A stretch of DNA of 60,720 bases from Alphaproteobacteria bacterium (GTDB taxonomy: Bacteria > Pseudomonadota > Alphaproteobacteria > Rickettsiales > JABCZZ01), in assembly GCA_013286285.1 (NCBI GenBank), contig JABDGA010000003.1:1-60720 (forward strand), read 5' to 3'. The translations under genes were made by a program, and so were the position numbers. The notes under the pieces are model-generated. The model saw nothing but the letters and a program-made list of their open reading frames with translations. It made no database searches and was not told the DNA's origin. This document shows positions 19,746-32,990 of the stretch, one piece after another. The stretch's first letter is position 1. Each line of letters begins with the position of its first letter.

Positions 19746-21416
19746 CTAATGGGTACGCTTATCCTTGTCACGCAACCTTCCCAGCTCTTCGCCCACGCGC
19801 TTCAGGCTTGGGCTACATCCGTCACGCGGCAGAATCACCTCAATCAGGTACATCTTGTCTGACGCGATGGCTTCCCGGATGGCCGCTTCCATCTCACCGT
19901 TATTCGTCACTTTTCTGCTGACCCCGGCCCCCAGGAGTTCCGTCATCTTGGTATAGTTCCAGCGCAGGATTTCGTTAAACGGCCCATCGAGGATAAAACG
20001 CTGCGTGCCGTAACCGTCGTTATTCAGCACGAAGACGATCGGGTTCATGCCGAATTTGGCCGCCGTGGAAAGCTCGATGCCGGTCATCTGGAATGCACCG
20101 TCACCGACAATCGTAATCACCCGATCTTCCGGACGCGCCGCGCTTGCGCCGATGGCCGCCGGCACCGCAAATCCCATGGAAAGGTAATACGCATCCGCAA
20201 GAAAATGCGTCGCCTTCTTCGTGCGCAGTTTCATCGCCCCGAAAAGGGAATCGCCGGTGTCGCAGGTAATCAGGCTGTTTTCCCCGGCATGCAGGCCCAG
20301 AATCCGGAAGAAGGATTCCATGGAAATCTCCGCCTGCTTTTCACTCTCGCCAAGCGGTTTCGGCTCCGGCGCAGGCAGCGGCAACTCACCAAGCGTGCGC
20401 GGCCGAACCGGCATCTCGTACAAACGTTCGAGGAACTCCCTGAGCACCACCTGCTCATAGGTGCGCGCGCCAATCTGCATTTTCTCCGTCGTGGCAAGCA
20501 TGGTGCGCTTGCGGCTCAGCTTCTCGCTCGTATTCATGAAGGCGAACCAGACATCGGTAATGAGCGCGCCGAGCATGATCAGGCAGTCCGAATCTTCCAC
20601 ATATTTCTGCACAGCGGCATCCGACAGCGGCCCCGAATAGACGCCGATAAACAGCGGGTGCGTTTCGCTGATGATGGACTTGGACATCAAGGTGGAGGCA
20701 ACCGGGATATTGAATTTGGCGGCCACCGCCAGCGCCTGCTCCACCAGCCCATGGCGATGCAGTTCAATATCGGCGATAATGACCGGCTGCTTTGCATGGT
20801 TGATAGCGGCCACCGCATCTTCAAGCATCGCATGCAGATTATCCGGATCGCTCACCGGCGCAGGAGGGTTGACCGCCGGAGGAATATGCGCGATAGGCAT
20901 ATCCACCACGTCGAACGGCACCTCGATATAGCCGGGGCGGGAATGCTCGAGCACCGCATCCACCACGCGCATGATTTCCGCCGCCGCTAGTGCCGGATCG
21001 AGCAGCACAGCCGTAGCACAGGTGACTTCCTCATAAATGCGGCGCTGGGTGTCAAACGTGCGCACCTTGTGATGCATCAGCACGTCCTTCTTGCGATCCA
21101 CCGGCGAAGGGCCGCCGGAAATCACCAGCAACGGCGATTTTTCTGCATAGGCGCAGGCCACCGAATTGAGCATATTCAACCCGCCGACACAGTACGTGAC
21201 GCAGGCCACCCCTAATCCGCTCACACGCGCATAGCCATCGGCGGCGAACCCCACGCTCGGCTCATGCGTCATGGTGATGATTTTAAGCGGCGACTGTTGC
21301 AGCCAGCGGAACGTCGGCAGGGCGAAATCACCCGGAATCCCGAACACATGCGTGACGCCCTTCTTATGCAGGTAATCAAATAAAAACGATCCGACGGTGG
21401 GAAATGCTGCGCTCAT
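19746..21416 (-). CDS. TPP-dependent alpha-keto acid decarboxylase (indolepyruvate/branched-chain keto-acid decarboxylase family)
   Basis: 556 aa. The N-terminus VGSFLFDYLHKKGVTHVFGIPGDFALPTF is typical of the pyruvate/indolepyruvate decarboxylase family. The TPP-binding GDGAFQMT...NNDGY motif is present. Its start overlaps the stop of the HMG-CoA lyase gene. Confidence 0.85.
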   Translation of the reverse strand: MSAAFPTVGSFLFDYLHKKGVTHVFGIPGDFALPTFRWLQQSPLKIITMTHEPSVGFAADGYARVSGLGVACVTYCVGGLNMLNSVACAYAEKSPLLVISGGPSPVDRKKDVLMHHKVRTFDTQRRIYEEVTCATAVLLDPALAAAEIMRVVDAVLEHSRPGYIEVPFDVVDMPIAHIPPAVNPPAPVSDPDNLHAMLEDAVAAINHAKQPVIIADIELHRHGLVEQALAVAAKFNIPVASTLMSKSIISETHPLFIGVYSGPLSDAAVQKYVEDSDCLIMLGALITDVWFAFMNTSEKLSRKRTMLATTEKMQIGARTYEQVVLREFLERLYEMPVRPRTLGELPLPAPEPKPLGESEKQAEISMESFFRILGLHAGENSLITCDTGDSLFGAMKLRTKKATHFLADAYYLSMGFAVPAAIGASAARPEDRVITIVGDGAFQMTGIELSTAAKFGMNPIVFVLNNDGYGTQRFILDGPFNEILRWNYTKMTELLGAGVSRKVTNNGEMEAAIREAIASDKMYLIEVILPRDGCSPSLKRVGEELGRLRDKDKRTH

Positions 21417-22306
21417 ACCTTATCCTTTTTGCCTAATGCCTTATGAATATATGCTGACGCGCTTTCAAGCAATGCGATATCCTGTACAGCACAACGCACG
21501 CTTCTTGCCTCACACCAGCGGATTAAATCCTCCATTGCCAGATTACCCTTAGGGCTATTGGCATAAGGGCAACCACCGAGTCCGCCGGTAGCCGCATCGA
21601 ACGTCCGGATGCCCAAATCATACGCGCGTTCGACATTGGCGATAGCGCTGCCGAACGTATCATGAAAATGCATCGCAAGCTGCGCGAGCGGAAATGCAAC
21701 ATCCACATGCGCCCCCACCAGAGCATCCACCCGTTCCGGCGTGCCGACGCCGGTCGTATCGCCCAACGACACTTCAAAGCATCCCATGTCGTGCAGTTGT
21801 TTCGAGCGCGATGCCACTTTCTGTGGAGAAAACGGTAAATCGGTATAGCCAAAAACATTCGATATATAACCGCGCACACGCATGCCGCAGGACAATGCCT
21901 CTTTCACCACCGGCTCTATAGCAATAAATGCCTCATCCACACCCGCATGGATATTCGCCTGCGAAAAGCTTTCCGATACGGCAAGAAAGATGGCAACTTC
22001 TTTTGCATTGACTTCTCTGGCACGCACGAGCCCCTTTAGATTCGGCACCAGATAGGAAAACACTGCGTCCGGAAACTCCCGCGCAACGGCTTGAAGCAAT
22101 GCGGCCACTTCCGCAGAATTGGCCATGCTAGGCACTGCCTGCGGCTTCACAAAGCTTCCCGCCTCAATGCGCCTAAGTCCTGCCAGAGCAAGCAGGCGGA
22201 TGAATTCCACTTTAGTTTCTGCAGAAAGGCCTGCCGCACCGGGCTCATTCTGCAACCCGTCCCGGGCGCCTACCTCCACCACTTCAATATCGTACGTGCT
22301 ATGCAT
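21413..22306 (-). CDS. liuE: Hydroxymethylglutaryl-CoA lyase
   Basis: 297 aa. EVGARDGLQNE, HFHDTFG and GGLGGCPYA are HMGL-family signatures. Confidence 0.9.
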   Translation of the reverse strand: MHSTYDIEVVEVGARDGLQNEPGAAGLSAETKVEFIRLLALAGLRRIEAGSFVKPQAVPSMANSAEVAALLQAVAREFPDAVFSYLVPNLKGLVRAREVNAKEVAIFLAVSESFSQANIHAGVDEAFIAIEPVVKEALSCGMRVRGYISNVFGYTDLPFSPQKVASRSKQLHDMGCFEVSLGDTTGVGTPERVDALVGAHVDVAFPLAQLAMHFHDTFGSAIANVERAYDLGIRTFDAATGGLGGCPYANSPKGNLAMEDLIRWCEARSVRCAVQDIALLESASAYIHKALGKKDKV

Positions 22307-22814
22307 GTCTCTCTTGCCGCTTGAGCCTTATCAGTTCCGCTCCCTCGCTTACCATCTCGCCTTCACGCGCCAGTACCGCTTCCACCACCGCATCATCCCC
22401 TGCGGCAAGCGTCATCTGCAGTTTCATGGCTTCCATCACCACTATCGCCTGCCCCTGCGCCACTGTGTCCCCCACTTTGACCAGCACCTGACGCACCAGA
22501 CCCGGCATAGGCGCTTTGGGACTCAGCTCCGCCTGCCTTGAGACCGCCGTATTATTCGCAACCTGTTCGGTTATCCTCGCCTGCGCACTGCCAATCTGCA
22601 CCCGATTTTCCTTACCCGACTGCCATACGGACACCGCCCTGCGCTGCCAGACTCCTTCCGCCACTTCACGCTCCAACATCATCCTGCCATCCGGCAAGCG
22701 GTAGCCGGAGAAATGGTAGAATTTTCCCTGAAAAGAAAAAGAGATCTCCTGCCCCTTGCGCGTTACGCCTTCAAGGGCCGCCAGACTACCGTTTATGTAT
22801 AAGGTTGTGTTCAT
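22299..22814 (-). CDS. liuD: Methylcrotonyl-CoA carboxylase alpha subunit, C-terminal piece (BT + biotinyl carrier domain)
   Basis: Starting from ATG 22814 (MNTTLYINGS...), the piece ends in a biotinyl domain, APMPGLVRQVLVKVGDTVAQGQAIVVMEAMKLQMTL (EAMK biotinylation motif). The listed ORF start at 23039 adds non-homologous sequence. Alternative ATGs are at 22841 and 22844. I see no strong SD. Confidence 0.8.
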   Translation of the reverse strand: MNTTLYINGSLAALEGVTRKGQEISFSFQGKFYHFSGYRLPDGRMMLEREVAEGVWQRRAVSVWQSGKENRVQIGSAQARITEQVANNTAVSRQAELSPKAPMPGLVRQVLVKVGDTVAQGQAIVVMEAMKLQMTLAAGDDAVVEAVLAREGEMVSEGAELIRLKRQERHA

Positions 22815-23017
22815 TGTCGCCAGTAAATGTGTGCTCGTCATCATCTGAATTTGCACCAGCAAACTATAGATAATTTTGCAATGCAAAATTCGGGGAATAA
22901 CGAGCGTATAAGTAACTATATAGGAAATCCGGGCAAGGATGCAACAGACATGAAAATTCCCTACGCCGCGAAGCTTATGCCACAAGGCGACGCAGGGAGA
23001 AATCCCGACAGGTTCAT

Positions 23018-23530
23018 TTAAGAATGCCTGCGCATCCAAGAAACAAACTTTCGGAAGGCACGGTCCAAGCTAGGAATGCTATGGGCCAGAACCAATAAAA
23101 AAAGAGCGATCAACAGTCTCTCATCCACACTCACACCACCTATGTGGATATGAACATGGAAGATCAAAAGAAGTACTAGCCCTACCTTAATAGCGATGAG
23201 CAAACATAAAAACGAAGCCCTAAGTATTTTGAACACACTCATCATTATAGCAGGAAAAGAGGCTGTTAACTTACGCCCCAGTCTCAGCTTGCGACGTAGG
23301 CAGTGTAGCAGCTGCACCACACCCGCTATCCCCCCTACCGCAACTCCATATTGCCAGCCTATAACTAAGGAAATTAGGAAACACGCTACGATGAGCATAA
23401 CGTATCTCATTATTTCGCTCAGTATAGAAATGTCACAGGGACGTTGATGATGCTTCTGCTCCTCATGTATCTGCTCTTGAGGCTTTTGCATCGCGCTCGT
23501 CACTCCTTTCGCACAAGTTTTGAACCTCAT
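23018..23530 (-). CDS. Hypothetical small membrane protein inside the insertion that splits liuD
   Basis: 170 aa with about 4 hydrophobic helices and visibly AT-richer codons than its neighbours. I recognise no family. It has the same orientation as the operon. Confidence 0.45.
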   Translation of the reverse strand: MRFKTCAKGVTSAMQKPQEQIHEEQKHHQRPCDISILSEIMRYVMLIVACFLISLVIGWQYGVAVGGIAGVVQLLHCLRRKLRLGRKLTASFPAIMMSVFKILRASFLCLLIAIKVGLVLLLIFHVHIHIGGVSVDERLLIALFLLVLAHSIPSLDRAFRKFVSWMRRHS

Positions 23531-23780
23531 GCGTAGTTATTTGATATATTATTAGTACTATCGAACAACATACGAGTCGGCACACCCGCGTTTGCGAGTG
23601 CGTTTTGTCCATACTTACGATCAATGTAGCAATAGAACCCCTGAGGATTCATGACGCACAGGATTATAAGTGTCTTAAGCGTTATTTTACCTTTCTGATT
23701 GCCTTAATCTTTAGAAAAATTGTGAATTTTTTGTGACAGTTTGTATACTTTTTTGAGAAGAAGGTAATAAAAATTTATTA

Positions 23781-25268
23781 TCAATTGGTTACAACCCTTG
23801 TCCACGCCGAATGCTCCGCTAATGACCCGGATGCAGCAGACGGTGCAGTATTGCCGCAGAGCAGATAGGCCGCCGCCAAAGCAGCAACTTCATCCTCGTT
23901 GTAGTTGTTTTCCAGCAGGGCCTGCCGGTGGCTGGCAATGAAACCGGTGGAGACTTTCCCGGCACGGAAATCTTCGCTTTCCAGCACACGCATCAGGAAA
24001 GCGCGGTTATGGATGGTGCCTTCCATCCATACTTGCGCCAGCGCATTTAAGAGGCGGCGGATAGTCTCCTCGCGGGTCTGCCCCCAGGCGGCAAGCTTGG
24101 CGATCATGGGGTCATAATTCGCGGATATCCTGCTGCCGCTGCTGTAGCCATTTTCGCAGCGCACATGCGGCAGATGCGGCAATGAGAATGCACTCAACAC
24201 TCCCGGCGCAGGCAGGAATTCACGATCCGGATCCTCGGCATAGAGCCGTACCTCCATCGCATGACCATGGCGTTTCACCTCTTTCTGGGTGAACGGCAGC
24301 GCTTTTCCCTCCGCCACTTGCAGCTGCAACTGCACCAGGTCAAGCCCCGTTACCATTTCGGTCACCGGGTGCTCCACCTGCAGGCGTGTGTTCATTTCAA
24401 GAAAATAGAATTCCCCGTTGGCATCCAGAATAAATTCCACCGTTCCCGCACCGACATAACCAATATGCGATGTGATGGCGATAGCGGCCCTGATCATGCT
24501 TTCACGCAATGCCTCCGGCAATTGCGGTGCCGGGCTTTCCTCCACCACTTTCTGGTAGCGGCGCTGTATCGAGCAATCGCGCTCGAAGAGATGCACGTGG
24601 TTGCCATGCGTATCGGAAAACACCTGCACTTCGATATGGCGCGGCTGAACCAGATATTTTTCCAATAATACGCGATCATCCCCAAACGCATTCTTTGCTT
24701 CCGCACGCGCCGCTTCAAGGGCAGCGGGCAGCGCATCCGCGCTTTCCACGATACGCATGCCCTTGCCGCCGCCGCCCGCCGCCGCCTTTACCAGCACGGG
24801 ATAGCCGATTCCGGCAGCGGCCTTTGCCAGCAGTTTCGTATCCTGCGCATCGCCGTCATAGCCGGGCACCACGGGCACGCCAATGGACTGGCACAGCCTG
24901 CGCGACTCTCCCTTATCCCCCATCAGGGCAATGATGTGCGCTGGCGGCCCGATAAACACAAGCCCGGCTTTGGTAACCGCTTCCGCAAACCGTGCGTTTT
25001 CAGAGAGGAATCCGTATCCCGGATGAATGGCATCCGCGCCACTGCTTTTTGCCGCCTCTATCAGTTTTTCGATATTCAGATAGGTTTCAGAAAGCGCATT
25101 GCCCATAAGCAATATGGACATATCGCCTGCGCTGGCATGGGGTAAATCCTTATCATCCTGCGCATATACAGTCACTGTTTCCACTCGCATCGCCCGGCAT
25201 GTCGCCACAATACGGCAGACGATTTCGCCGCGGTTGGCAATGAGCAGGCGTTTTATCTTTCCCACCAT
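23781..25268 (-). CDS. liuD: Methylcrotonyl-CoA carboxylase alpha subunit, N-terminal piece (biotin carboxylase/ATP-grasp)
   Basis: 495 aa. KRLLIANRGEIVCRI, GYPVLVKAAAGGGGKGMR, and EMNTRLQVEHPVTE are biotin carboxylase signatures. The piece terminates at ...EHSAWTRVVTN without any biotinyl domain. Confidence 0.9.
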   Translation of the reverse strand: MVGKIKRLLIANRGEIVCRIVATCRAMRVETVTVYAQDDKDLPHASAGDMSILLMGNALSETYLNIEKLIEAAKSSGADAIHPGYGFLSENARFAEAVTKAGLVFIGPPAHIIALMGDKGESRRLCQSIGVPVVPGYDGDAQDTKLLAKAAAGIGYPVLVKAAAGGGGKGMRIVESADALPAALEAARAEAKNAFGDDRVLLEKYLVQPRHIEVQVFSDTHGNHVHLFERDCSIQRRYQKVVEESPAPQLPEALRESMIRAAIAITSHIGYVGAGTVEFILDANGEFYFLEMNTRLQVEHPVTEMVTGLDLVQLQLQVAEGKALPFTQKEVKRHGHAMEVRLYAEDPDREFLPAPGVLSAFSLPHLPHVRCENGYSSGSRISANYDPMIAKLAAWGQTREETIRRLLNALAQVWMEGTIHNRAFLMRVLESEDFRAGKVSTGFIASHRQALLENNYNEDEVAALAAAYLLCGNTAPSAASGSLAEHSAWTRVVTN

Positions 25269-25271
25269 GGG

Positions 25272-26864
25272 CTACATCCTGAACACGCCGAAGCGTGTAT
25301 CGGCAATGGGGGCATTCAGACTTGCGGCGATGACAAGACCCAGCGTATCGCGGGTAGAGGCGGGATCGATAACGCCATCGTCCCAGAGCCGCGCCGTGCT
25401 GTAATAGGCGCTGCTTTCCGCTGCGTATTTCTCCAAAAGCGGCTTGCGGAGCGCTTCCTTTTCTTCTGGCGTCGGTTTCCTGCCTTCCTTTTCCATCGCG
25501 TCGTCGCGCACACGCGCCAGCACATCCGCCGCCTGCTCGCCGCCCATCACTGAAATACGCGCATTCGGCCACATGAAGAGAAAACGCGGGTCGTACGCAC
25601 GGCCGCACATGCCGTAATTACCTGCGCCGAACGAGCCGCCGATAATGATGGTGAATTTCGGCACCTGCGCATTACTCACCGCCATCACCATCTTGGCGCC
25701 GTGGCGGGCAATCCCCTCGGCCTCATATTTCTTCCCCACCATAAATCCGGTGATGTTCTGCAGGAACACCAGCGGAATTTTACGCATGCAGCACAGCTCG
25801 ATAAAATGCGTGGCCTTGATAGCCGATTCGGAAAAAAGAATCCCGTTATTGGCGACAATCCCCACCGGCGTTCCATGGATGGCCGCAAAGCCGCAGACGA
25901 TCGTAGTGCCGTAACGCCCTTTAAACTCCTGAAAACGCGAACCATCTACCAGCCGCGCAATAATCTCACGCACGTCAAATGGCATCCGCGTGGAATCCTT
26001 TGGCAGGATACCGTAAATATCTTCCACTGGATAAGCAGGATCTTCATAAGGTAAAGTGTTGCGCCTTGCCGCCGTCTGCCAGTTGAGGCTCGCCACAATA
26101 TCGCGCACCTTGGCAAGCGCTTCTTCCTCATTTTCCGCATAATGGTCGGCAACGCCCGACTGCGCCGTATGCACATCCGCACCGCCCAGCGCTTCAGCCG
26201 TAACATCCTCGCCGGTAGCCGCCTTTACCAGCGGCGGTCCTGCCAAAAAGATCGTACCGTTGCCTTTGACAATGACACTTTCATCACACATCGCCGGGAC
26301 ATACGCGCCACCCGCCGTGCACGACCCAAGCACCGCAGCAATCTGTGGAATACCTGCCGCGGACATGCGCGCCTGATTGAAGAAAATACGCCCGAAATGG
26401 TCGCGATCAGGAAACACCTCATCCTGCATGGGCAGAAACGCACCGCCGGAATCCACGAGATAAATGCAGGGCAGGTTATTCTGCATCGCGATTTCCTGCG
26501 CGCGCAGATGCTTCTTTACGGTGAGCGGAAAATACGTGCCGCCTTTGACGGTGGCGTCATTAGCAACGAACATGCATTCATGGCCATGCACGCGCCCGAT
26601 GCCGGTGACGATACCCGCCGAAGGCACTCCACCTTCCTTTTCATACATGCCGTGTGCCGCCAGGGCGGAAAGCTCGACGAATGGCGAGCCGGAATCCAGG
26701 ATACGCGCTATGCGCTCGCGTGGCAGCAGCTTACCCCGCGAATGGTGGCGTTCCACCGCTTTTGCCCCGCCGCCCTGCCGCACCTGCTCCATCTTTTCAG
26801 CCAACTCGTCGGCCAGCGCCTTATGATGCTGTATATTATCACTAAATTCCGTAGCCTGCGTCAC
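25272..26864 (-). CDS. liuB: Methylcrotonyl-CoA carboxylase beta subunit (carboxyltransferase)
   Basis: 530 aa of typical carboxyl transferase sequence ([24 protein letters not shown], ...[12 protein letters not shown]). Confidence 0.95.
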
Positions 26865-26865
26865 T

Positions 26866-28416
26866 TTAAAAGAACCCTAATGCTTTCGGGCTATAGCTGG
26901 TGATGACGTTCTTAGTCTGCTGGAAATGCGCCAACATCATGCGATGGTTCTCACGGCCAATACCCGATTGTTTATACCCCCCGAACGCAGCATGCACCGG
27001 ATAGAGGTGATAGGCATTGATCCAGATGCGGCCGGCCTTAATTGCCCGCGAGGCGCGGTAGGAAATGTTGAGGTTGCGCGTCCATACCCCGGCGGTGAGG
27101 CCATACGTGGTATCGTTCGCAATACGGATGGCATCATCAAAATCCTTGAACTTGGTGACGGAAACCACCGGCCCGAAAATCTCCTCGCGGAAGATACGCA
27201 TGGCATTATTACCTTCAAAGATAGTGGGTTTCACGTAATAGCCGCCATCCAGTTCCCCGCCGGGTTTTACGCGCAGGCCGCCCGTGCGGAGCTTTGCGCC
27301 TTCATTCTTGCCGATATCGATATAGGAAAGCACCTTTTTAAACTGCTCTTCCGATGCCTGCGGCCCCATCATCGTGGAAAGATCGAACGGATTGCCGACG
27401 GTTATTTTCTCCACCCGCGCGACCGCATTTTCCATAAACCTGTCATAGATCTTCTCATGCACCAGGACACGGCTGGGAGAAGTGCAGACTTCACCTTTAT
27501 TCAAGGCAAACATCGCGAATCCCTCCAGCGCCTTATCGGCAAATTCATCATCGGCATCCAAAATGTCCGGGAAGAAGATATTGGGCGATTTGCCGCCCAG
27601 CTCCAATGTCACCGGCACGATATTCTGTGAAGCATACTGCATGATAAGCTTGCCGGTGGAAGTTTCGCCGGTAAAGGTGAGCTTGCCGACACGCGGGCTG
27701 GTGGCAAGCGCTTTGCCCGCTTCCGGCCCAAAACCGTGCACGACGTTGATAACCCCCGGAGGGACAATATCCGCAATCAGCTCCATCAGCAGCATGATGG
27801 AAAGCGGCGTCTGCTCGGCGGGCTTGATGACGATGGTATTGCCCGCCGCCAGCGCCGGCGCGGTTTTCCAGGCGGTGAGCGTCAGCGGAAAATTCCAGGG
27901 AATAATCGCGCCGACCACGCCTACCGGCTCATGGAAATGATAAGCGACCATGTCGTTATCGATCTGCGAAACCGAACTGTCTTCGGTGCGGCAGGCGGCG
28001 GCGAAATAACGGAAGTGATCGATGACCATCGGCAGATCGCCTGCCATCGCCTCACGCAACGGTTTTCCCATATCAATGGATTCGGCCAGTGCCAGCGTTT
28101 CCAGATTCTGCTCCACGCGATCGGCGATTTTATTCAAGATTGCGGAACGCTGCGCCGCAGAAGTGACAGACCAGCTTTCCGCCGCTTTGTGCGCCGCATC
28201 AAGCGCCATTTCCACATCGCGTTCATTCGACCGCGCCGCCTGAAAAAATACTGTTCCGGTCACCGGGCTGATGCTGTCGAAATACTCCCCGCCTAGCGGC
28301 TCGACCATGTGGTTATTAATCCAGTTGCCGTAGCGCTTCTTAAGCTTCAGCTTATCTTTTACCGCATCCAGAATGCTTGCATGTTCCATAGATTTCTGTT
28401 TCTGGGCTGTTGACAC
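26866..28416 (-). CDS. NAD(P)-dependent aldehyde dehydrogenase
   Basis: 516 aa. ELGGKSP and [14 protein letters not shown] (catalytic Cys) are present. The architecture is that of the roughly 506-aa AcoD/AldB-like class. Confidence 0.95.
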
Positions 28417-28483
28417 GGCTTCCTCCCTTGGAATTACGCTATGCTAATTCATAGACCCGGCACCTGTGTTTGGCAACTAAAAC

Positions 28484-29632
28484 CTAGTCATTACAGCCGA
28501 TATGGCGGGAGATGATCAGGCGCTGGATTTCCGAGGTCCCCTCGCCGATGCGCAGCAGGCGGTGATCGCGCCAGAAGCGCTCGACATCATACTCTTCCAT
28601 GAGGCCGTAGCCGCCGTGAATCTGCACTGCCATGTCAGTGACTTCACCGGCGATTTCCGAGCTGTATAGTTTGGCCATCGCGGCTTCCTTGGTGAAGGGC
28701 TGCTGTGCATCCGCAAGTGCACAGACGTTGTAGAGATAGGTACGCGCCAGCTCGATTTTCATGTGCATATCCGCCAGCGCAAACGCGATGGACTGGAAAT
28801 GGGCGATGGGATGATTGAACTGGCGGCGTTCCTTGGCATAAGCAAGCGCCTTCTCATAGGCTCCCTGCGCGCAGCCCACCCCCATCGCTGCGATGCCAAT
28901 CTTGCCGCGATCGAGCGTCGCCAGCATCTGCCTGGAGCCGTCCCCTTGCCTGCCTAACAGATTCTCGTCCGGCACAAACACATTATCGAAATACAGCTCT
29001 GACGTATCGGAAGCGCGCCACATCAGCTTGCCATGCATGGCCTTCGCGGAAAACCCTTTCGTGCCGCGCTCCACGATAAAACAGGAGAGCTCCGGCTTGC
29101 CTTCGCCTTTGCTGCCTGTCACCGCCTGCACCGTAACGCCTGTATTCATAGCGGAGGCGCCATTGGTGATAAATATCTTCGCGCCGTTGATAATCCAGCC
29201 GCCATCCGTCTTTTTCGCCACCGTTTTGCTGCCACGCGAATCCGATCCCGCCCCCGGTTCGGTAAGCCCGAACGCCCAGAGTTTTTCCCCGGTGCAGAGC
29301 TGCGGCAGATATTTTTTGCGCTGCGCGTCATTGCCGAAATAATAGAGCGGCCCGATCCCCAGCGAATTATGGGCAGTGATAGTCGCCGCCTGCGATCCGT
29401 CCACGCGTGCAATTTCCTCACAGGCGACGGCATAGGCAAGATAATCCATGCCATGCCCGCCATAGCTCTCAGGCACGATGATGCCAAACAACCCCAGCGT
29501 TCCCATCTTACGCGTGAGTTCCTCAGAGAATTGCTCTTTCCTATCCAAATCGCGGGCGATCGGTGCAATCTCGCCTTCGGCGAATTTACGTACCGATTCG
29601 CGGAGTATCTGATGGGTTTCTGAGAACATCAT
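28484..29632 (-). CDS. Acyl-CoA dehydrogenase (short/branched-chain type; candidate isovaleryl-CoA dehydrogenase by context)
   Basis: 382 aa. FGLTEPGAGSDS, IFITNG and QIHGGYGLMEEYDVERFWRD are ACAD motifs. Its start overlaps the stop of the upstream synthetase gene (ATGA). Confidence 0.9.
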   Translation of the reverse strand: MMFSETHQILRESVRKFAEGEIAPIARDLDRKEQFSEELTRKMGTLGLFGIIVPESYGGHGMDYLAYAVACEEIARVDGSQAATITAHNSLGIGPLYYFGNDAQRKKYLPQLCTGEKLWAFGLTEPGAGSDSRGSKTVAKKTDGGWIINGAKIFITNGASAMNTGVTVQAVTGSKGEGKPELSCFIVERGTKGFSAKAMHGKLMWRASDTSELYFDNVFVPDENLLGRQGDGSRQMLATLDRGKIGIAAMGVGCAQGAYEKALAYAKERRQFNHPIAHFQSIAFALADMHMKIELARTYLYNVCALADAQQPFTKEAAMAKLYSSEIAGEVTDMAVQIHGGYGLMEEYDVERFWRDHRLLRIGEGTSEIQRLIISRHIGCND

Positions 29633-31302
29633 GCCGTCTCCTGTTCTTTAAGGTTAAGTTCAATGCACATCTGCTCGCGCATTTTGAATTTCTGGATTTT
29701 ACCGCTGACGGTAGTCGGGAATTCGGACACGAATTTCCAGTATTGCGGCACTTTGTAATGGGCAAGGTTCTTGCAGCAGAAATCCCGGATTTCCTTTTCA
29801 CCGGCCTGCGCACCGTGATGGAGCTGCACCCAGGCGCACAGCGCTTCGCCGTACTTCACATCGGGCACGCCAAACACGGCCGCCTGCGAAATCGCCGGAT
29901 GAGTGAAGAGAAATTCCTCAATTTCACGCGGGTAGATATTCTCACCGCCACGGATCACCATATCCTTCAGGCGGCCGGTAATTTTGTAATAACCGTCCGG
30001 CCTGCGGATGGCAAGATCGCCGGTATGCACCCAACCATCCTGCATCGTTTCTACGGTCGCCTCCGGATCATTGTAATAGCCGAGCATCGTACCGTGGCCG
30101 CGTGCGCAAAGCTCGCCCTGCTGGTTGTCCCCCAGCATCCTGCCGGAATGCGGATCGCGGATTTCAATGTCCACGCCGGGCAAAGGCGGGCCGACGGTTT
30201 CCACCCGCAGCGCGATGGAATCACACGTACGGCTTTGCGTCAGCACCGGCGCAGTTTCCGTCTGGCCATACGCAATGGTAATATCACGGCAGCCCATCAC
30301 ACCGATGACTTTCTTCATGATCTCTATCGGGCACGGACTGCCCGCCATAATGCCGCTGCGTAAGGAGGACAGGTTACGCGCTCTAAAGCTTGCATCCTCC
30401 AGCATTGCGACAAACATGGTCGGCACGCCGTAAATAGTCGTGCAACGTTCTTTTTCAATAGCCTCAAGCGTCGCCGACGGATTGAAATATTCGGCGGGAA
30501 CCACCAGCGCCGCACCGCGCACTATCGCACCGAGCACCCCCATCACGCATCCGAAACAATGATAAAACGGCACCGGCACGCACATGCGATCGGCCTCCGT
30601 GATTTCCTGACAGCCTGTGACATACCATGCATTCATCAGGATGTTGCAGTGCGATAACATGACCGCCTTGGGGAATCCGGTCGTACCGGAGGTATATTGA
30701 ATATTGATGGGATCCTTGGCGGAGAGCGTTGCCGCAATGCCTGCAAGCTGTGCATCGGCAACCGAGCGCCCTGCTTCCAGCATTTCATGCCAGGGCAAGT
30801 AATATTCCGGAGCATCCGGCTTTAGGGCGATCACATGCCGAAGTTTGGGAAAAGACGGGCAATGCACGCCGCCATGCCTTGCCTCTTTTATCTGCGGACA
30901 AGCCTCAGCAAAAATCGCATAATAGTCGGAAGACTTGAATGTATCGGTAAGGAATAAAGCCACAATATCGCTCTGCGCAATCGTGTAGCATAGCTCGAAA
31001 GGACGGTAGGCGGGATTAATCGTCACAAGCACAATGCCAACACTTGCTGCGCCATATTGCAGTAACACCCATTGCGGAATGTTGGTGGCCCAAACGCCGA
31101 TATGCTCACCCGGCTTGATGCCCAGCGCCAGTAGACTTTTGGCCACTTCTTGCACCGCAACATGAAACTCGTCATAGCGCATGCGCACGCCGCTCTGCGG
31201 AAACACCATGGCGTCGCGTTCTGCAAAGCGCCCTGCAATTCTGCCGAGCACCGCACCGATAGTAAGGCCATCGACCCAAGGCGATGATGATGTTTCAGCC
31301 AT
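29629..31302 (-). CDS. AMP-forming acyl-CoA synthetase (medium/branched-chain fatty acid-CoA ligase type)
   Basis: IQYTSGTTGFPKAVMLSH (AMP-binding motif), YGQTE and TGDLA..DGYYKITGRLKD are present. The start is placed at ATG 31302 (MAETSS...). The listed start at 31371 reads through a palindromic repeat element. Confidence 0.9.
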   Translation of the reverse strand: MAETSSSPWVDGLTIGAVLGRIAGRFAERDAMVFPQSGVRMRYDEFHVAVQEVAKSLLALGIKPGEHIGVWATNIPQWVLLQYGAASVGIVLVTINPAYRPFELCYTIAQSDIVALFLTDTFKSSDYYAIFAEACPQIKEARHGGVHCPSFPKLRHVIALKPDAPEYYLPWHEMLEAGRSVADAQLAGIAATLSAKDPINIQYTSGTTGFPKAVMLSHCNILMNAWYVTGCQEITEADRMCVPVPFYHCFGCVMGVLGAIVRGAALVVPAEYFNPSATLEAIEKERCTTIYGVPTMFVAMLEDASFRARNLSSLRSGIMAGSPCPIEIMKKVIGVMGCRDITIAYGQTETAPVLTQSRTCDSIALRVETVGPPLPGVDIEIRDPHSGRMLGDNQQGELCARGHGTMLGYYNDPEATVETMQDGWVHTGDLAIRRPDGYYKITGRLKDMVIRGGENIYPREIEEFLFTHPAISQAAVFGVPDVKYGEALCAWVQLHHGAQAGEKEIRDFCCKNLAHYKVPQYWKFVSEFPTTVSGKIQKFKMREQMCIELNLKEQETA

Positions 31303-31313
31303 AAATATGCCCT

Positions 31314-31385
31314 CGTCATCCCGTGCGAAAGCACGGGATCTCAGGCTATTATATTGAGATGCCGTGGTCAAGCCACGGCATGACG
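31314..31385. repeat. 72-nt double-hairpin palindromic element, copy 1
   Basis: Structure: cgtcatc-[ccgtgc gaaa gcacgg]-gatctcaggc, a 9-nt spacer, then gagat-[gccgtgg tcaag ccacggc]-atgacg. Its 30 nt at 31356-31385 are the exact reverse complement of 38792-38821. Confidence 0.85.
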
Positions 31386-31425
31386 TGGAAAGAGGTGTAA
31401 TTTATTTGGAAGGCTGATACATTAT

Positions 31426-31471
31426 ATGCCTCTCGCATGTGAAGCGTTGGGCCTTCACATGCGAGAGGCAT
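31426..31471. repeat. Perfect 19-bp stem hairpin
   Basis: atgcctctcgcatgtgaag (31426-31444) pairs with cttcacatgcgagaggcat (31453-31471) around an 8-nt loop, cgttgggc. There is no flanking U-tract on either strand. It lies in the divergent region between the synthetase and MaoC genes. Confidence 0.85.
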
Positions 31472-31537
31472 CAAAGCCGACGTTGAAAATGTGGGCTTTG
31501 CGCCGCAGAGCGAGCGTGACGCACGCCAAGAGTTGGC

Positions 31538-32038
31538 GTGCAAAAGGTATATATGGGAGACATGGAAGCTATGCGTAAAAAACTCTACTACGAGGACTTC
31601 ACTACCGGACAGCAATTGCGCAGCAAAAGCAGCTATACGATCAGCCGGGAAAACGCCATCGCATTTGCTCGTGAATACGATCCGCAGCCGCAACATATGG
31701 ACGAACACGAGGCCCAGGGGACCACTTTCGGCAACCTCGTCGTCAGCGGCTGGCAGACCGCCGCCGTGAGCATGCGCCTGAAAGAACAGACAGGGCTGTA
31801 TGATGTCTCCGGCGGACTGATCGGCGTGGGGATCGAAAATATACGCTGGCCACGCCCCACGCTGCCGGGCGATTCCTTACACGTGGTAGTGACCGTGCTG
31901 GAAAAGCGCCTGTCCAAATCACAGTCAGGCAAAGGCATCATCCGGTATAAAGTGGAAACCTTCAATCAGCGTGACGAACTGGCGATGGAAATGACCACCA
32001 CAGTCATCGTGCCGGCACCCCCAGAAGGGCAGCACTAG
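31538..32038 (+). CDS. MaoC-like (hot-dog fold) enoyl-CoA hydratase/dehydratase
   Basis: YEDFTTGQQLRSKSSYTISRENAIAFAREYDPQPQHMDEHEA...FGNLVVSGWQT is the MaoC dehydratase pattern. The listed start is GTG; alternative ATGs are at 31553, 31562 and 31571. Confidence 0.8.
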   Translation: MQKVYMGDMEAMRKKLYYEDFTTGQQLRSKSSYTISRENAIAFAREYDPQPQHMDEHEAQGTTFGNLVVSGWQTAAVSMRLKEQTGLYDVSGGLIGVGIENIRWPRPTLPGDSLHVVVTVLEKRLSKSQSGKGIIRYKVETFNQRDELAMEMTTTVIVPAPPEGQH

Positions 32039-32990
32039 CCGTAGTGGCATCTACCCGTTCCGCATGCCTCGTGGAGGAGGTAGCCCTGCCGTCATCCGGC
32101 AAGGTTTCATTTGAGTTATTGGTAACTCTTTGTGTTTCTGGTCGGGAAGAATTTTGGGAAATTTCATTTTTGGCAACCGACTTTTTCTTGCCCATCCAAT
32201 TCGCAAACAGATTATAGAAAAACGAATGCAGCAAAGCATAGGGAATCCCCAATCCTGCATCGGTGGCGATGCTTCTATGTATGAAATTCCAGCGCTCGCC
32301 TGCTTCCTGCGGACTGATGTTTTTGAATTTTTCCGGCCCTCGCCCTATCAACCTTGCAGCTTTCTCACTTAACTTCTCTACGTGATTAAACCATATTTTA
32401 TCACTCACTTTTGCCGTCCAGGGAATAAGGACAATGAGAAGCAGTGGCAGTAAGGCACATCCTCGTGCCGCAAGTCCCGCCCAGAAATTTTTCTTAGGTT
32501 CATTGTCAATCGCGTCATAGGCTTCCCGAAACTTGGGATCGCTCTCCACTTTTTCCTTGCCGTATATCAAGCGATCATAAAACCCGATGATGGATTTTTT
32601 GACTTTTTTGCTTTCCAGCACCCGCAAGGGCGGCAGCGTGAACATGCCGCCGGCAATCACGCCGAAGAATATATTTCCGTATTCCACGCTCTTTTGCCGC
32701 AGTTCATTATTCTTAATAGGAGAAAGTGCGCGGTTAAGCCCCCGGCTGATCGGATCGCTCCAGATCTTCTGACCCAATTTCGAGTATTTTCCCCAGTACG
32801 CAAAGCTTACACCGGCCATGGCATTAAAAATCCAGTCAATGCCTAAATACGTGCTCCAGAAATGGATACGTTCTCCCGCAGTCTTGCCACGAGGCCCAGC
32901 ACGATCGGGTTTCTCCGGATCCGAATCCAGTACGGGTGCCACATCCAGCGGGGTTTCGGCGGGTTCTTTTTTGGGTGTCTTATCTTCCAT
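32004..32990 (-). CDS. Hypothetical membrane protein, 328 aa
   Basis: A long ORF with several hydrophobic helices and Lys-rich loops. I recognise no family. Its 3' end overlaps the convergent MaoC gene by 35 nt. Confidence 0.5.
   Translation of the reverse strand: MEDKTPKKEPAETPLDVAPVLDSDPEKPDRAGPRGKTAGERIHFWSTYLGIDWIFNAMAGVSFAYWGKYSKLGQKIWSDPISRGLNRALSPIKNNELRQKSVEYGNIFFGVIAGGMFTLPPLRVLESKKVKKSIIGFYDRLIYGKEKVESDPKFREAYDAIDNEPKKNFWAGLAARGCALLPLLLIVLIPWTAKVSDKIWFNHVEKLSEKAARLIGRGPEKFKNISPQEAGERWNFIHRSIATDAGLGIPYALLHSFFYNLFANWMGKKKSVAKNEISQNSSRPETQRVTNNSNETLPDDGRATSSTRHAERVDATTASAALLGVPAR

Follow-up and report, generated by a model that had tools for sequence, protein, structure and literature searches.

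A liu-type leucine operon in an alphaproteobacterial lineage with a predicted decarboxylase-based entry to isovaleryl-CoA

The window analysed here is the whole of contig C3 (60,720 bp) of G000, a metagenome-assembled genome (MAG) of an alphaproteobacterium (1.45 Mb, 77 contigs, 53% complete), and carries on its minus strand an operon related to the liu genes of leucine degradation, with a gene for a MaoC-type hydratase divergent from it. From the gene content, a sequence-only reading had proposed a route from 2-ketoisocaproate to 3-hydroxy-3-methylglutaryl-CoA (HMG-CoA) independent of the branched-chain keto-acid dehydrogenase complex (BCKDH), in which a thiamine diphosphate (ThDP)-dependent 2-keto-acid decarboxylase (KDC), an aldehyde dehydrogenase (ALDH) and an AMP-forming CoA ligase supply isovaleryl-CoA, and had suggested that the MaoC protein might replace the missing crotonase LiuC. 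The operon was searched for in 40 relatives and in a species-representative collection, and this interpretation is partly supported: an entry to isovaleryl-CoA through the decarboxylase, the ALDH and the ligase, without a BCKDH, is probable from the comparison of genomes. The proposed replacement of LiuC is not supported as it was written.

In the proposed route, the aminotransferase IlvE would convert leucine into 2-ketoisocaproate, which the ThDP decarboxylase of the operon would decarboxylate to isovaleraldehyde. The ExaC-like ALDH would oxidise the aldehyde to isovalerate and the ligase would activate it to isovaleryl-CoA, these two enzymes also being able, in principle, to admit external isovaleraldehyde or isovalerate. 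A short-chain-type acyl-CoA dehydrogenase (ACAD) would then produce 3-methylcrotonyl-CoA, and a 3-methylcrotonyl-CoA carboxylase (MCC) made of three polypeptides, i.e., a biotin carboxylase (BC), a biotin carboxyl carrier protein (BCCP) and a carboxyltransferase, would convert it into 3-methylglutaconyl-CoA. In the relatives, LiuC would hydrate this intermediate to HMG-CoA, which HMG-CoA lyase (HMGL) would cleave to acetyl-CoA and acetoacetate, and a SCOT-type CoA transferase, encoded elsewhere, could activate the acetoacetate. The genes concerned are the following:

19746-21416, minus strand: KDC, with TPP_enzyme_N, TPP_enzyme_M and TPP_enzyme_C domains; last gene of the operon
21413-22306, minus strand: HMG-CoA lyase (PRK05692, 292 bits, above the cut-off of 246)
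22299-22814, minus strand: small MCC subunit (BCCP protein) of 171 aa with a Biotin_lipoyl domain; start inferred by alignment with relatives
23781-25268, minus strand: BC subunit of MCC, i.e., the N-terminal part of the alpha subunit, with Biotin_carb_N, CPSase_L_D2 and Biotin_carb_C domains
25272-26864, minus strand: MCC beta (carboxyltransferase), with a Carboxyl_trans domain
26866-28416, minus strand: predicted non-acylating NAD(P)+ aldehyde dehydrogenase, ExaC-like (Aldedh, 535 bits; NF050026 ExaC, 834 bits, cut-off of 900 not reached)
28484-29632, minus strand: ACAD of the short-chain/butyryl type, candidate isovaleryl-CoA dehydrogenase
29629-31302, minus strand: AMP-forming acyl-CoA ligase, candidate isovalerate-CoA ligase, with AMP-binding and AMP-binding_C domains (PRK12583, 731 bits, cut-off of 832 not reached); first gene of the operon
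31538-32038, plus strand, divergent from the operon: predicted MaoC-type (hot-dog) hydratase (MaoC_dehydratas, PF01575, 62.5 bits)

The gene content described earlier was borne out, each open reading frame (ORF) being found at its place and assigned to its family by Pfam and NCBIfam profiles, and the ORF coordinates confirm the overlapping junctions at 29629-29632, 22299-22306 and 21413-21416. The HMGL gene shares 4 nt with the KDC gene and 8 nt with the BCCP gene, while 3 nt separate MCC beta from BC and 1 nt separates the ALDH from MCC beta. The ligase most likely starts at 31302 (MAETSSS) and not at 31371, because the alignments with its relatives begin only at about residue 20-30 of the longer reading frame. 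Each of the nine enzyme ORFs has its full length, with 55-88% identity to its counterpart in G003, a genome of the same genus (98% complete). The operon is present in 10 further genomes, labelled at NCBI as Rickettsiales or Alphaproteobacteria MAGs (many of the relatives stem from lake or activated-sludge samples); it is full length in 8 of them, and the other two (loci L030 and L033) show HMGL-KDC only, so that a liu-linked KDC occurs in 11 genomes in all. The order ligase-ACAD-ALDH-MCC beta-LiuC-BC-BCCP-HMGL-KDC is shared by seven further full-length loci and by G018, a complete genome of another family (one closed contig, 1.86 Mb).

Two other arrangements of the liu genes were found. The variant operon of G026 (L109, contig C100, 4900-19238) reads ALDH-ligase-(120 aa)-ACAD-(138 aa)-MCC beta-LiuC-BC-BCCP-HMGL-second ligase (PRK08162)-thiolase-short-chain dehydrogenase/reductase (SDR); its two small ORFs match no family, and the KDC of this genome lies on a separate contig. 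In GCA_048537145.1 (L170, 3395-10459), a minimal operon reads ACAD-MCC beta-LiuC-BC-BCCP-HMGL with MaoC divergent, and ligase, ALDH and KDC were not found within 10 kb.

The first line of evidence for the proposed entry is the lack of a BCKDH. The statement that the cluster contains no E1, E2 or E3 genes was confirmed, and beyond the pyruvate (PDH) and 2-oxoglutarate (OGDH) dehydrogenases none was found in the contig or in the assembled genome. The whole-genome search for bkd or E1-E2 genes recovered in G000 one E1 alpha/beta-E2 set annotating as PDH and one SucB (OGDH); given the 53% completeness, this is weak evidence that G000 itself has no BCKDH. The search was extended to an order-wide sample of 41 genomes, of which 33 are at least 90% complete. 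None of the 41 contains a third E2: each has at most two E2 catalytic domains, which, where annotated, belong to PDH and OGDH. The complete, operon-bearing G018 encodes only the PDH E1 alpha and SucA, and no POR/VOR-type enzyme scored over the cut-off in five genomes. The order hence seems to be without a BCKDH, as far as its genomes can tell. IlvE, the branched-chain aminotransferase, is present in both G000 and G018 (509 and 494 bits, cut-off of 396).

The second line of evidence is the distribution of the entry genes. Orthologues of MCC beta (at least 74% identity), ALDH (at least 63%), ligase (at least 59%) and MaoC (45-64%) are all found in the same 5 of the 41 genomes (G000, G003, G011, G018 and G026, from four families) and in none of the 36 others. 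These five genomes are related by descent and the co-occurrence is a pattern, not a statistical test. G002, which belongs to the same genus as G000 and is 100% complete, has none of the MCC beta, ALDH, ligase, MaoC and KDC set. The operon genes have 54-58% GC, 4-8 points above the G000 mean of 50.4%, in agreement with a unit that does not follow taxonomy.

The third line of evidence concerns the decarboxylase. The KDC scores 416 bits against TIGR03394 (indolepyruvate/phenylpyruvate/branched-chain keto-acid decarboxylases), below the equivalog cut-off of 554.5, which places it in a related clade of that family and not within the equivalog. It shares the three-domain fold family of the Ehrlich-pathway decarboxylases, i.e., KdcA and KivD of Lactococcus lactis and the phenylpyruvate decarboxylase (PPDC) of Azospirillum brasilense; the latter (2NXW) is the closest solved structure at 343 bits, against 229-266 bits for KivD, KdcA and the pyruvate and indolepyruvate decarboxylases (about 240 for KivD and KdcA). 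Glu52, the His115-His116 motif and Asp288 (PPDC Asp282) are conserved with these enzymes and kept in 81 of 81 KDC sequences, whereas the site aligning with Glu462 of KivD (E462) carries Gln in all alphaproteobacterial orthologues. In a maximum-likelihood tree of the 81 sequences, all 11 liu-linked KDCs fall inside one 14-member clade (SH-aLRT 100), which conflicts with taxonomy; the KDC of G001, of the same genus as G000, falls in a distant clade. G003 and G018 have a single KDC each. The operon, KDC included, hence behaves as a unit out of step with taxonomy. Six of the 556 alignment columns fully separate the liu-linked clade from the 40 other alphaproteobacterial orthologues:

Position 290: W in the liu clade; F or L in the others
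Position 291: F or S in the liu clade; L, M or Q in the others
Position 295: G, N, R or S in the liu clade; D or M in the others
Position 296: T in the liu clade; F, G, H, N, S or Y in the others
Position 474: F or Y in the liu clade; H, I or N in the others
Position 541: V or A in the liu clade; L or M in the others

Positions 290-296 closely follow the catalytic Asp288, position 474 lies three residues beyond the equivalent of KivD V461, and position 541 is the equivalent of KivD M538, which we take to be a pocket residue; KivD S286 aligns with position 289. In KivD, the substitutions S286T and V461I raised isobutanol output (PMC12312269). All six differences hence fall within segments that align with residues of the KivD pocket, as would be expected of a shift in substrate preference, although the alignment gives no indication of which substrate is preferred. 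As a separate observation, the KDC orthologue of G019, which has no liu genes (L017, contig C9), contains one in-frame TAG and may be a pseudogene.

Several observations weigh against the decarboxylase-based entry. The nearest characterised relative of the KDC, the A. brasilense PPDC, prefers phenylpyruvate. Outside the liu context, the order has many KDC orthologues (56-77% identity), which adjoin tad, uvrB, glycosyltransferase, polyhydroxybutyrate (PHB) depolymerase and carAB genes, and six genomes of the order have one among housekeeping neighbours without liu, ALDH or ligase genes, which implies that the family has a role beyond leucine. G011 and G026 keep the ALDH, ligase and liu genes together with the KDC elsewhere. 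The ACAD of the operon is not of the LiuA or isovaleryl-CoA dehydrogenase (IVD) type. Liu-linked ligases also occur in organisms with a BCKDH, B. subtilis (yngI) being one. P. putida is another (bioRxiv 10.1101/2020.07.04.188060). G003 (L026, 4635-6699), G004 (L027, 4499-6626) and G001 (L028, 4536-6552) each carry an orphan pair of PDH-like E1 alpha and beta genes, with no E2. Finally, G000 is itself only 53% complete and its operon lacks liuC. The orphan pair was rejected as a BCKDH: neither E2 nor E3 lies beside it, it adjoins Flp/Tad pilus genes, it is PDH-E1-like but below the cut-off (270-279 bits to TIGR03182, cut-off of 394) and it is absent from G018.

Some of these observations would be explained if the operon served to scavenge external isovaleraldehyde, isovalerate or 3-methylbutanol, the KDC being a resident general-purpose gene which in one clade happens to stand last in the operon, without channelling carbon from leucine into the pathway. 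ALDH and ligase track the liu genes perfectly and the KDC does not, as illustrated by its unlinked position in G011 and G026 and its presence in the six liu-less genomes, and the ligases of BCKDH-bearing bacteria fit such a function. We nevertheless consider scavenging unlikely, since the KDC gene closes the operon and overlaps HMGL by 4 nt, the linkage is kept in 11 genomes, and the linked KDCs form a clade of their own with changes confined to the segments aligned with the KivD pocket. Moreover, without a BCKDH or VOR, the cells would otherwise have no route for leucine into the pathway they carry. The BCKDH-independent entry is thus supported as far as genomes can show, by the lack of a third E2 and of POR/VOR, the presence of IlvE, the co-occurrence of ALDH and ligase, and the linkage and pocket-segment changes of the KDC; it is a result of comparison and not of biochemistry.

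The ligase is assigned from its context. G000, G003, G004 and G018 encode both SCOT subunits (A and B); acetoacetate could thus be activated without the operon ligase, which leaves the activation of isovalerate as its simplest role. In G026, an ALDH-ligase pair heads the liu operon while a separate second ligase and a thiolase stand at its tail. The candidate role of the operon enzyme as an isovalerate-CoA ligase agrees with what was suggested for PP_4063, the ligase of the P. putida liu cluster, a fitness-based candidate isovalerate ligase (bioRxiv 10.1101/2020.07.04.188060). Among 20 loci around ligase orthologues in other alphaproteobacteria, a single one is linked to liu genes, and in none does an ALDH or KDC gene lie close by.

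In databases, ligases linked to liu genes tend to be annotated as acetoacetyl-CoA synthetases, and the operon ligase could likewise close the pathway, with KDC and ALDH serving aromatic or other keto acids. The proximity of the KDC to a phenylpyruvate decarboxylase and the liu-linked ligases of organisms with a BCKDH are in line with such a division of labour, which is nonetheless very improbable: SCOT A and B are encoded in the same genomes, G026 has its second ligase and thiolase for the exit, and the ALDH co-occurs with liu genes only. In addition, no PaaA or PaaC was detected in the 41 genomes, so that phenylacetyl-CoA would have no onward route, although an E. coli control gave no match either and the sensitivity of this search is uncertain. 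With that same reservation, an aromatic route to phenylacetyl-CoA was rejected. The ligase was judged unlikely to be an acetoacetyl-CoA synthetase in view of SCOT and the separate exit genes of G026.

The ACAD of the operon has its best solved matches among short-chain acyl-CoA dehydrogenase (SCAD)/Bcd-type enzymes (310-370 bits), with IVD structures at 246-281 bits, and keeps the C-terminal glutamate of the MCAD type ('IGEGT'). The remaining ACADs of G018 comprise only one glutaryl-CoA dehydrogenase and one long, FadE-like enzyme; hence the operon enzyme, the sole short-chain ACAD of that genome, is the only candidate for the isovaleryl-CoA step, its assignment coming from context only.

The carboxylase is better defined. 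MCC beta matches the P. aeruginosa MCC beta at 777 bits and human MCCB at 758 bits, compared with 497 bits for the geranyl-CoA carboxylase (GCC) beta and at most 280 bits for propionyl-CoA carboxylase (PCC) beta subunits. By these scores, the carboxyltransferase is a true MCC beta, and a geranyl-CoA (Atu) pathway in place of the Liu pathway was rejected on the same ground, the enzyme being far nearer to MCC than to GCC. The BC subunit has its best solved match in residues 7-457 of the P. aeruginosa MCC alpha (518 bits). In the BCCP protein, the biotinyl domain is preceded by an N-terminal stretch of about 90 residues that has no sequence match, and residues 92-166 align with residues 580-652 of the same MCC alpha. 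The alpha subunit had been described as split, and it is indeed encoded by two genes, but this is a conserved design of the relatives (in G018, proteins of 504 and 170 aa whose genes overlap at ATGA), to which an insertion specific to G000 is added:

22815-23780, between the BC and BCCP genes: AT-rich insertion of 966 bp, 42.4% GC
23018-23530, minus strand, within the insertion: hydrophobic orphan ORF of 170 aa, without a Pfam or NCBIfam family

The insertion is single copy in the G000 genome and absent from all the relatives' loci. Foreign DNA parts the BC gene from the BCCP gene in G000. Two parts of the orphan ORF (about residues 33-69 and 92-136) are hydrophobic, and it gave no tblastn match in the relatives' loci. 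A mobile element was considered and rejected, as searches for inverted or direct terminal repeats, for another copy and for a family match all found nothing. A search for the empty site in genomes of the same genus recovered none; the flanking proteins are there 40-56% identical and not syntenic.

The hydration step differs between G000 and its relatives. A crotonase gene, liuC (about 750-800 bp), lies between MCC beta and BC in 10 of the 10 relatives' operons in which the interval is readable, i.e., the seven loci, G018, the rearranged operon of G026 and the minimal operon of L170. In the window, the interval is reduced to the following:

25269-25271: junction without liuC, read from the sequence as the MCC beta stop TAG, ccc and the BC start ATG

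The absence of LiuC from the cluster, as previously noted, therefore stands and extends further, since no crotonase was found in the operon or the contig, and the whole-genome search for a liuC homologue found none in the assembled 53% of G000 (no ECH_1 match; tblastn with the G018 LiuC gave nothing below E = 2.7). As every relative's locus covering the interval has a crotonase, the loss is specific to G000: on this comparison, liuC has been cleanly deleted there, and its lack is not a feature of the system. Hydration in G000 may be carried out by MaoC, by a gene in the unassembled half of the genome, or be missing, and with liuC deleted and half of the genome unseen, the pathway may or may not work in G000.

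In hydratase-2 enzymes, an Asp and a His stand at a defined spacing. MaoC shows this spacing in its alignment with 3EXZ ('D-P-Q-P-Q-H'), the closest solved structure, which has no known function. Within the order, all five liu-bearing genomes have a MaoC orthologue and the 36 other genomes have none. In G003 and G018 the MaoC gene stands upstream of the ligase gene in divergent orientation, the same orientation being seen relative to the minimal operon in L170; in L074 it lies downstream of the KDC, in L038 it adjoins an unlinked KDC, and in G011 and G026 it is present but unlinked. Both MaoC and LiuC are encoded in G003, G018, G026 and L170 (in G011, the contig ends short of the interval). 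The suggestion that MaoC might substitute for LiuC consequently lacks support in the form in which it was made, MaoC accompanying LiuC in G003, G018, L170 and, unlinked, in G026. From its distribution, MaoC is tied to the liu core alongside LiuC and is not simply a substitute; that it replaces LiuC in G000 only, where liuC is deleted, is possible. MaoC as the hydratase of an MFE-2-like short-chain beta-oxidation set (ACS2-thiolase-ACAD-SDR of L172, G026 and G003) was found to be a worse fit than its link with the liu genes, this set being missing from the MaoC-bearing G018.

If MaoC did replace LiuC as the 3-methylglutaconyl-CoA hydratase, the pathway would be complete in G000. Such a replacement would account for the deletion of liuC while all other operon ORFs are intact, and is in keeping with the 5/5 against 0/36 distribution, the divergent position beside the first liu gene in two differing operon layouts, the catalytic Asp/His spacing, and the existence within the MaoC family of hydratases of methyl-branched dicarboxylic enoyl-CoAs, although the matches to the Ich/RipB and mesaconyl-CoA hydratase models are weak. 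It is improbable all the same, because coexistence with LiuC in four cases implies that substitution is not the usual role of MaoC, and because the usual MaoC stereochemistry on the E isomer would yield the enantiomer that is not a substrate of HMG-CoA lyase. With the Z isomer, an R-type hydratase would yield the same (S)-HMG-CoA. Furthermore, no MaoC-type 3-methylglutaconyl-CoA hydratase was found in the literature search, and the distant MaoC homologues (42-55% identity) have no liu genes beside them. A broader and tentative proposal, which we rate as rather doubtful, is that MaoC is an undescribed regular part of leucine catabolism in this lineage, either hydrating 3-methylglutaconyl-CoA, so that liuC would be dispensable as in G000, or rescuing its Z isomer, on which the crotonase could not act, and that it would form, with the decarboxylase-ALDH-ligase entry, a self-contained, lipoate-independent pathway moving as a unit between families.

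The opposite outcome would be a pathway broken and decaying in G000, which the loss of liuC and the BC/BCCP insertion inactivated recently enough for the ORFs not to have degraded. The clean loss of liuC with no crotonase in the assembled 53%, and an insertion of foreign, 42%-GC DNA which abolishes the translational coupling that BC and BCCP show in G018, would both be consistent with decay. The gene set is also dispensable, the same-genus G002 (100% complete) having none of it, and secA is found as three ORFs on another contig, pointing to gene decay or sequencing errors. With nine full-length enzyme ORFs 55-88% identical to those of G003 on the other side, and 47% of G000 unseen, decay is to be taken seriously but seems to us less than probable. 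The secA ORFs follow each other on the minus strand of contig C54 (L007; 5108-5932, 4131-5117 and 3161-4255) and span model positions 2-243, 255-560 and 557-814; the two frameshifts in this essential gene are either sequencing or assembly errors or gene decay.

Compared with known systems, the operon shares MCC beta, BC and HMG-CoA lyase with liuRABCDE of Pseudomonas, and its relatives keep the B-C-D order with the crotonase between the carboxylase genes. In contrast to the Pseudomonas cluster, no LiuR is in view, the ACAD is of the SCAD type and not of the LiuA type, MCC alpha is encoded by two genes, and genes for ALDH, ligase and KDC are present in addition; the order yielded no BCKDH, and liuC is deleted in G000. 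The yngJIHGFE cluster of B. subtilis encodes a ligase, a short-chain-type ACAD, separate BC and BCCP, HMG-CoA lyase, a crotonase and a carboxyltransferase, YngI being the acyl-CoA ligase and YngH the biotin carboxylase, and thus resembles the window operon in its ligase, its SCAD-type ACAD and the separate layout of BC and BCCP. It differs from the window operon in having neither an ALDH nor a keto-acid decarboxylase, and B. subtilis has a bkd operon. The closest parallel to the entry itself is the working model of a BKDH-independent route in S. aureus (MbcS), in which a keto-acid decarboxylase, an ALDH and an acyl-CoA synthetase lead to branched acyl-CoA (PMC11167679). The decarboxylase-ALDH-ligase logic is the same, but the S. 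aureus route feeds fatty-acid synthesis, coexists with BKDH, and depends on scattered genes of which those for the decarboxylase and the ALDH are not named (PMC11167679), whereas in the window a single catabolic operon contains all three genes, in a lineage where no BCKDH was found.

No report of an operon of this kind was found in the literature searches. Four features appear to be undescribed: the combination of the three entry genes and the Liu genes in one catabolic operon, an entire order in which no BCKDH was found, the signature of the recruited decarboxylase in its pocket segments, and the association with MaoC. Pathway-prediction tools call leucine degradation absent in the absence of BCKDH; should the proposed entry be correct, such calls would be wrong for widespread uncultured alphaproteobacteria of freshwater, soil and wastewater. 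The operon would then be a natural, operon-encoded case of a bypass so far only proposed for S. aureus, with named candidate genes for the three steps. The six clade-specific residues of the KDC amount to a hypothesis on substrate choice in a family used for fusel-alcohol engineering, and the strict co-occurrence of MaoC and liu, together with the natural deletion of liuC, points to a possible unknown hydratase step.

Between the operon and the MaoC gene lies the remaining feature of the locus:

31303-31537: control region between the divergent genes, containing a double-hairpin element (72 nt) and a perfect inverted repeat (19 bp)

The double hairpin is located at 31314-31385 and the arms of the inverted repeat at 31426-31444 and 31453-31471 (19 bp, 100% complementary, 8-nt loop). 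The ligase/MaoC spacer measures about 235 bp in the window and only about 40 bp in G018, and the two elements are hence additions in G000. A scan of the operon for promoters and terminators gave counts not above those of shuffled sequence. The genes flanking the locus encode a HutF-like amidohydrolase, a CBS protein, MlaC, an iron permease, a 328-aa ORF and CheA, with no visible link to the pathway. The 328-aa ORF (32004-32990, minus strand, no Pfam family) is convergent with MaoC and overlaps its 3′ end by 35 nt; it also adjoins MaoC in G003 (56% identity) and has a homologue in G006 (41%).

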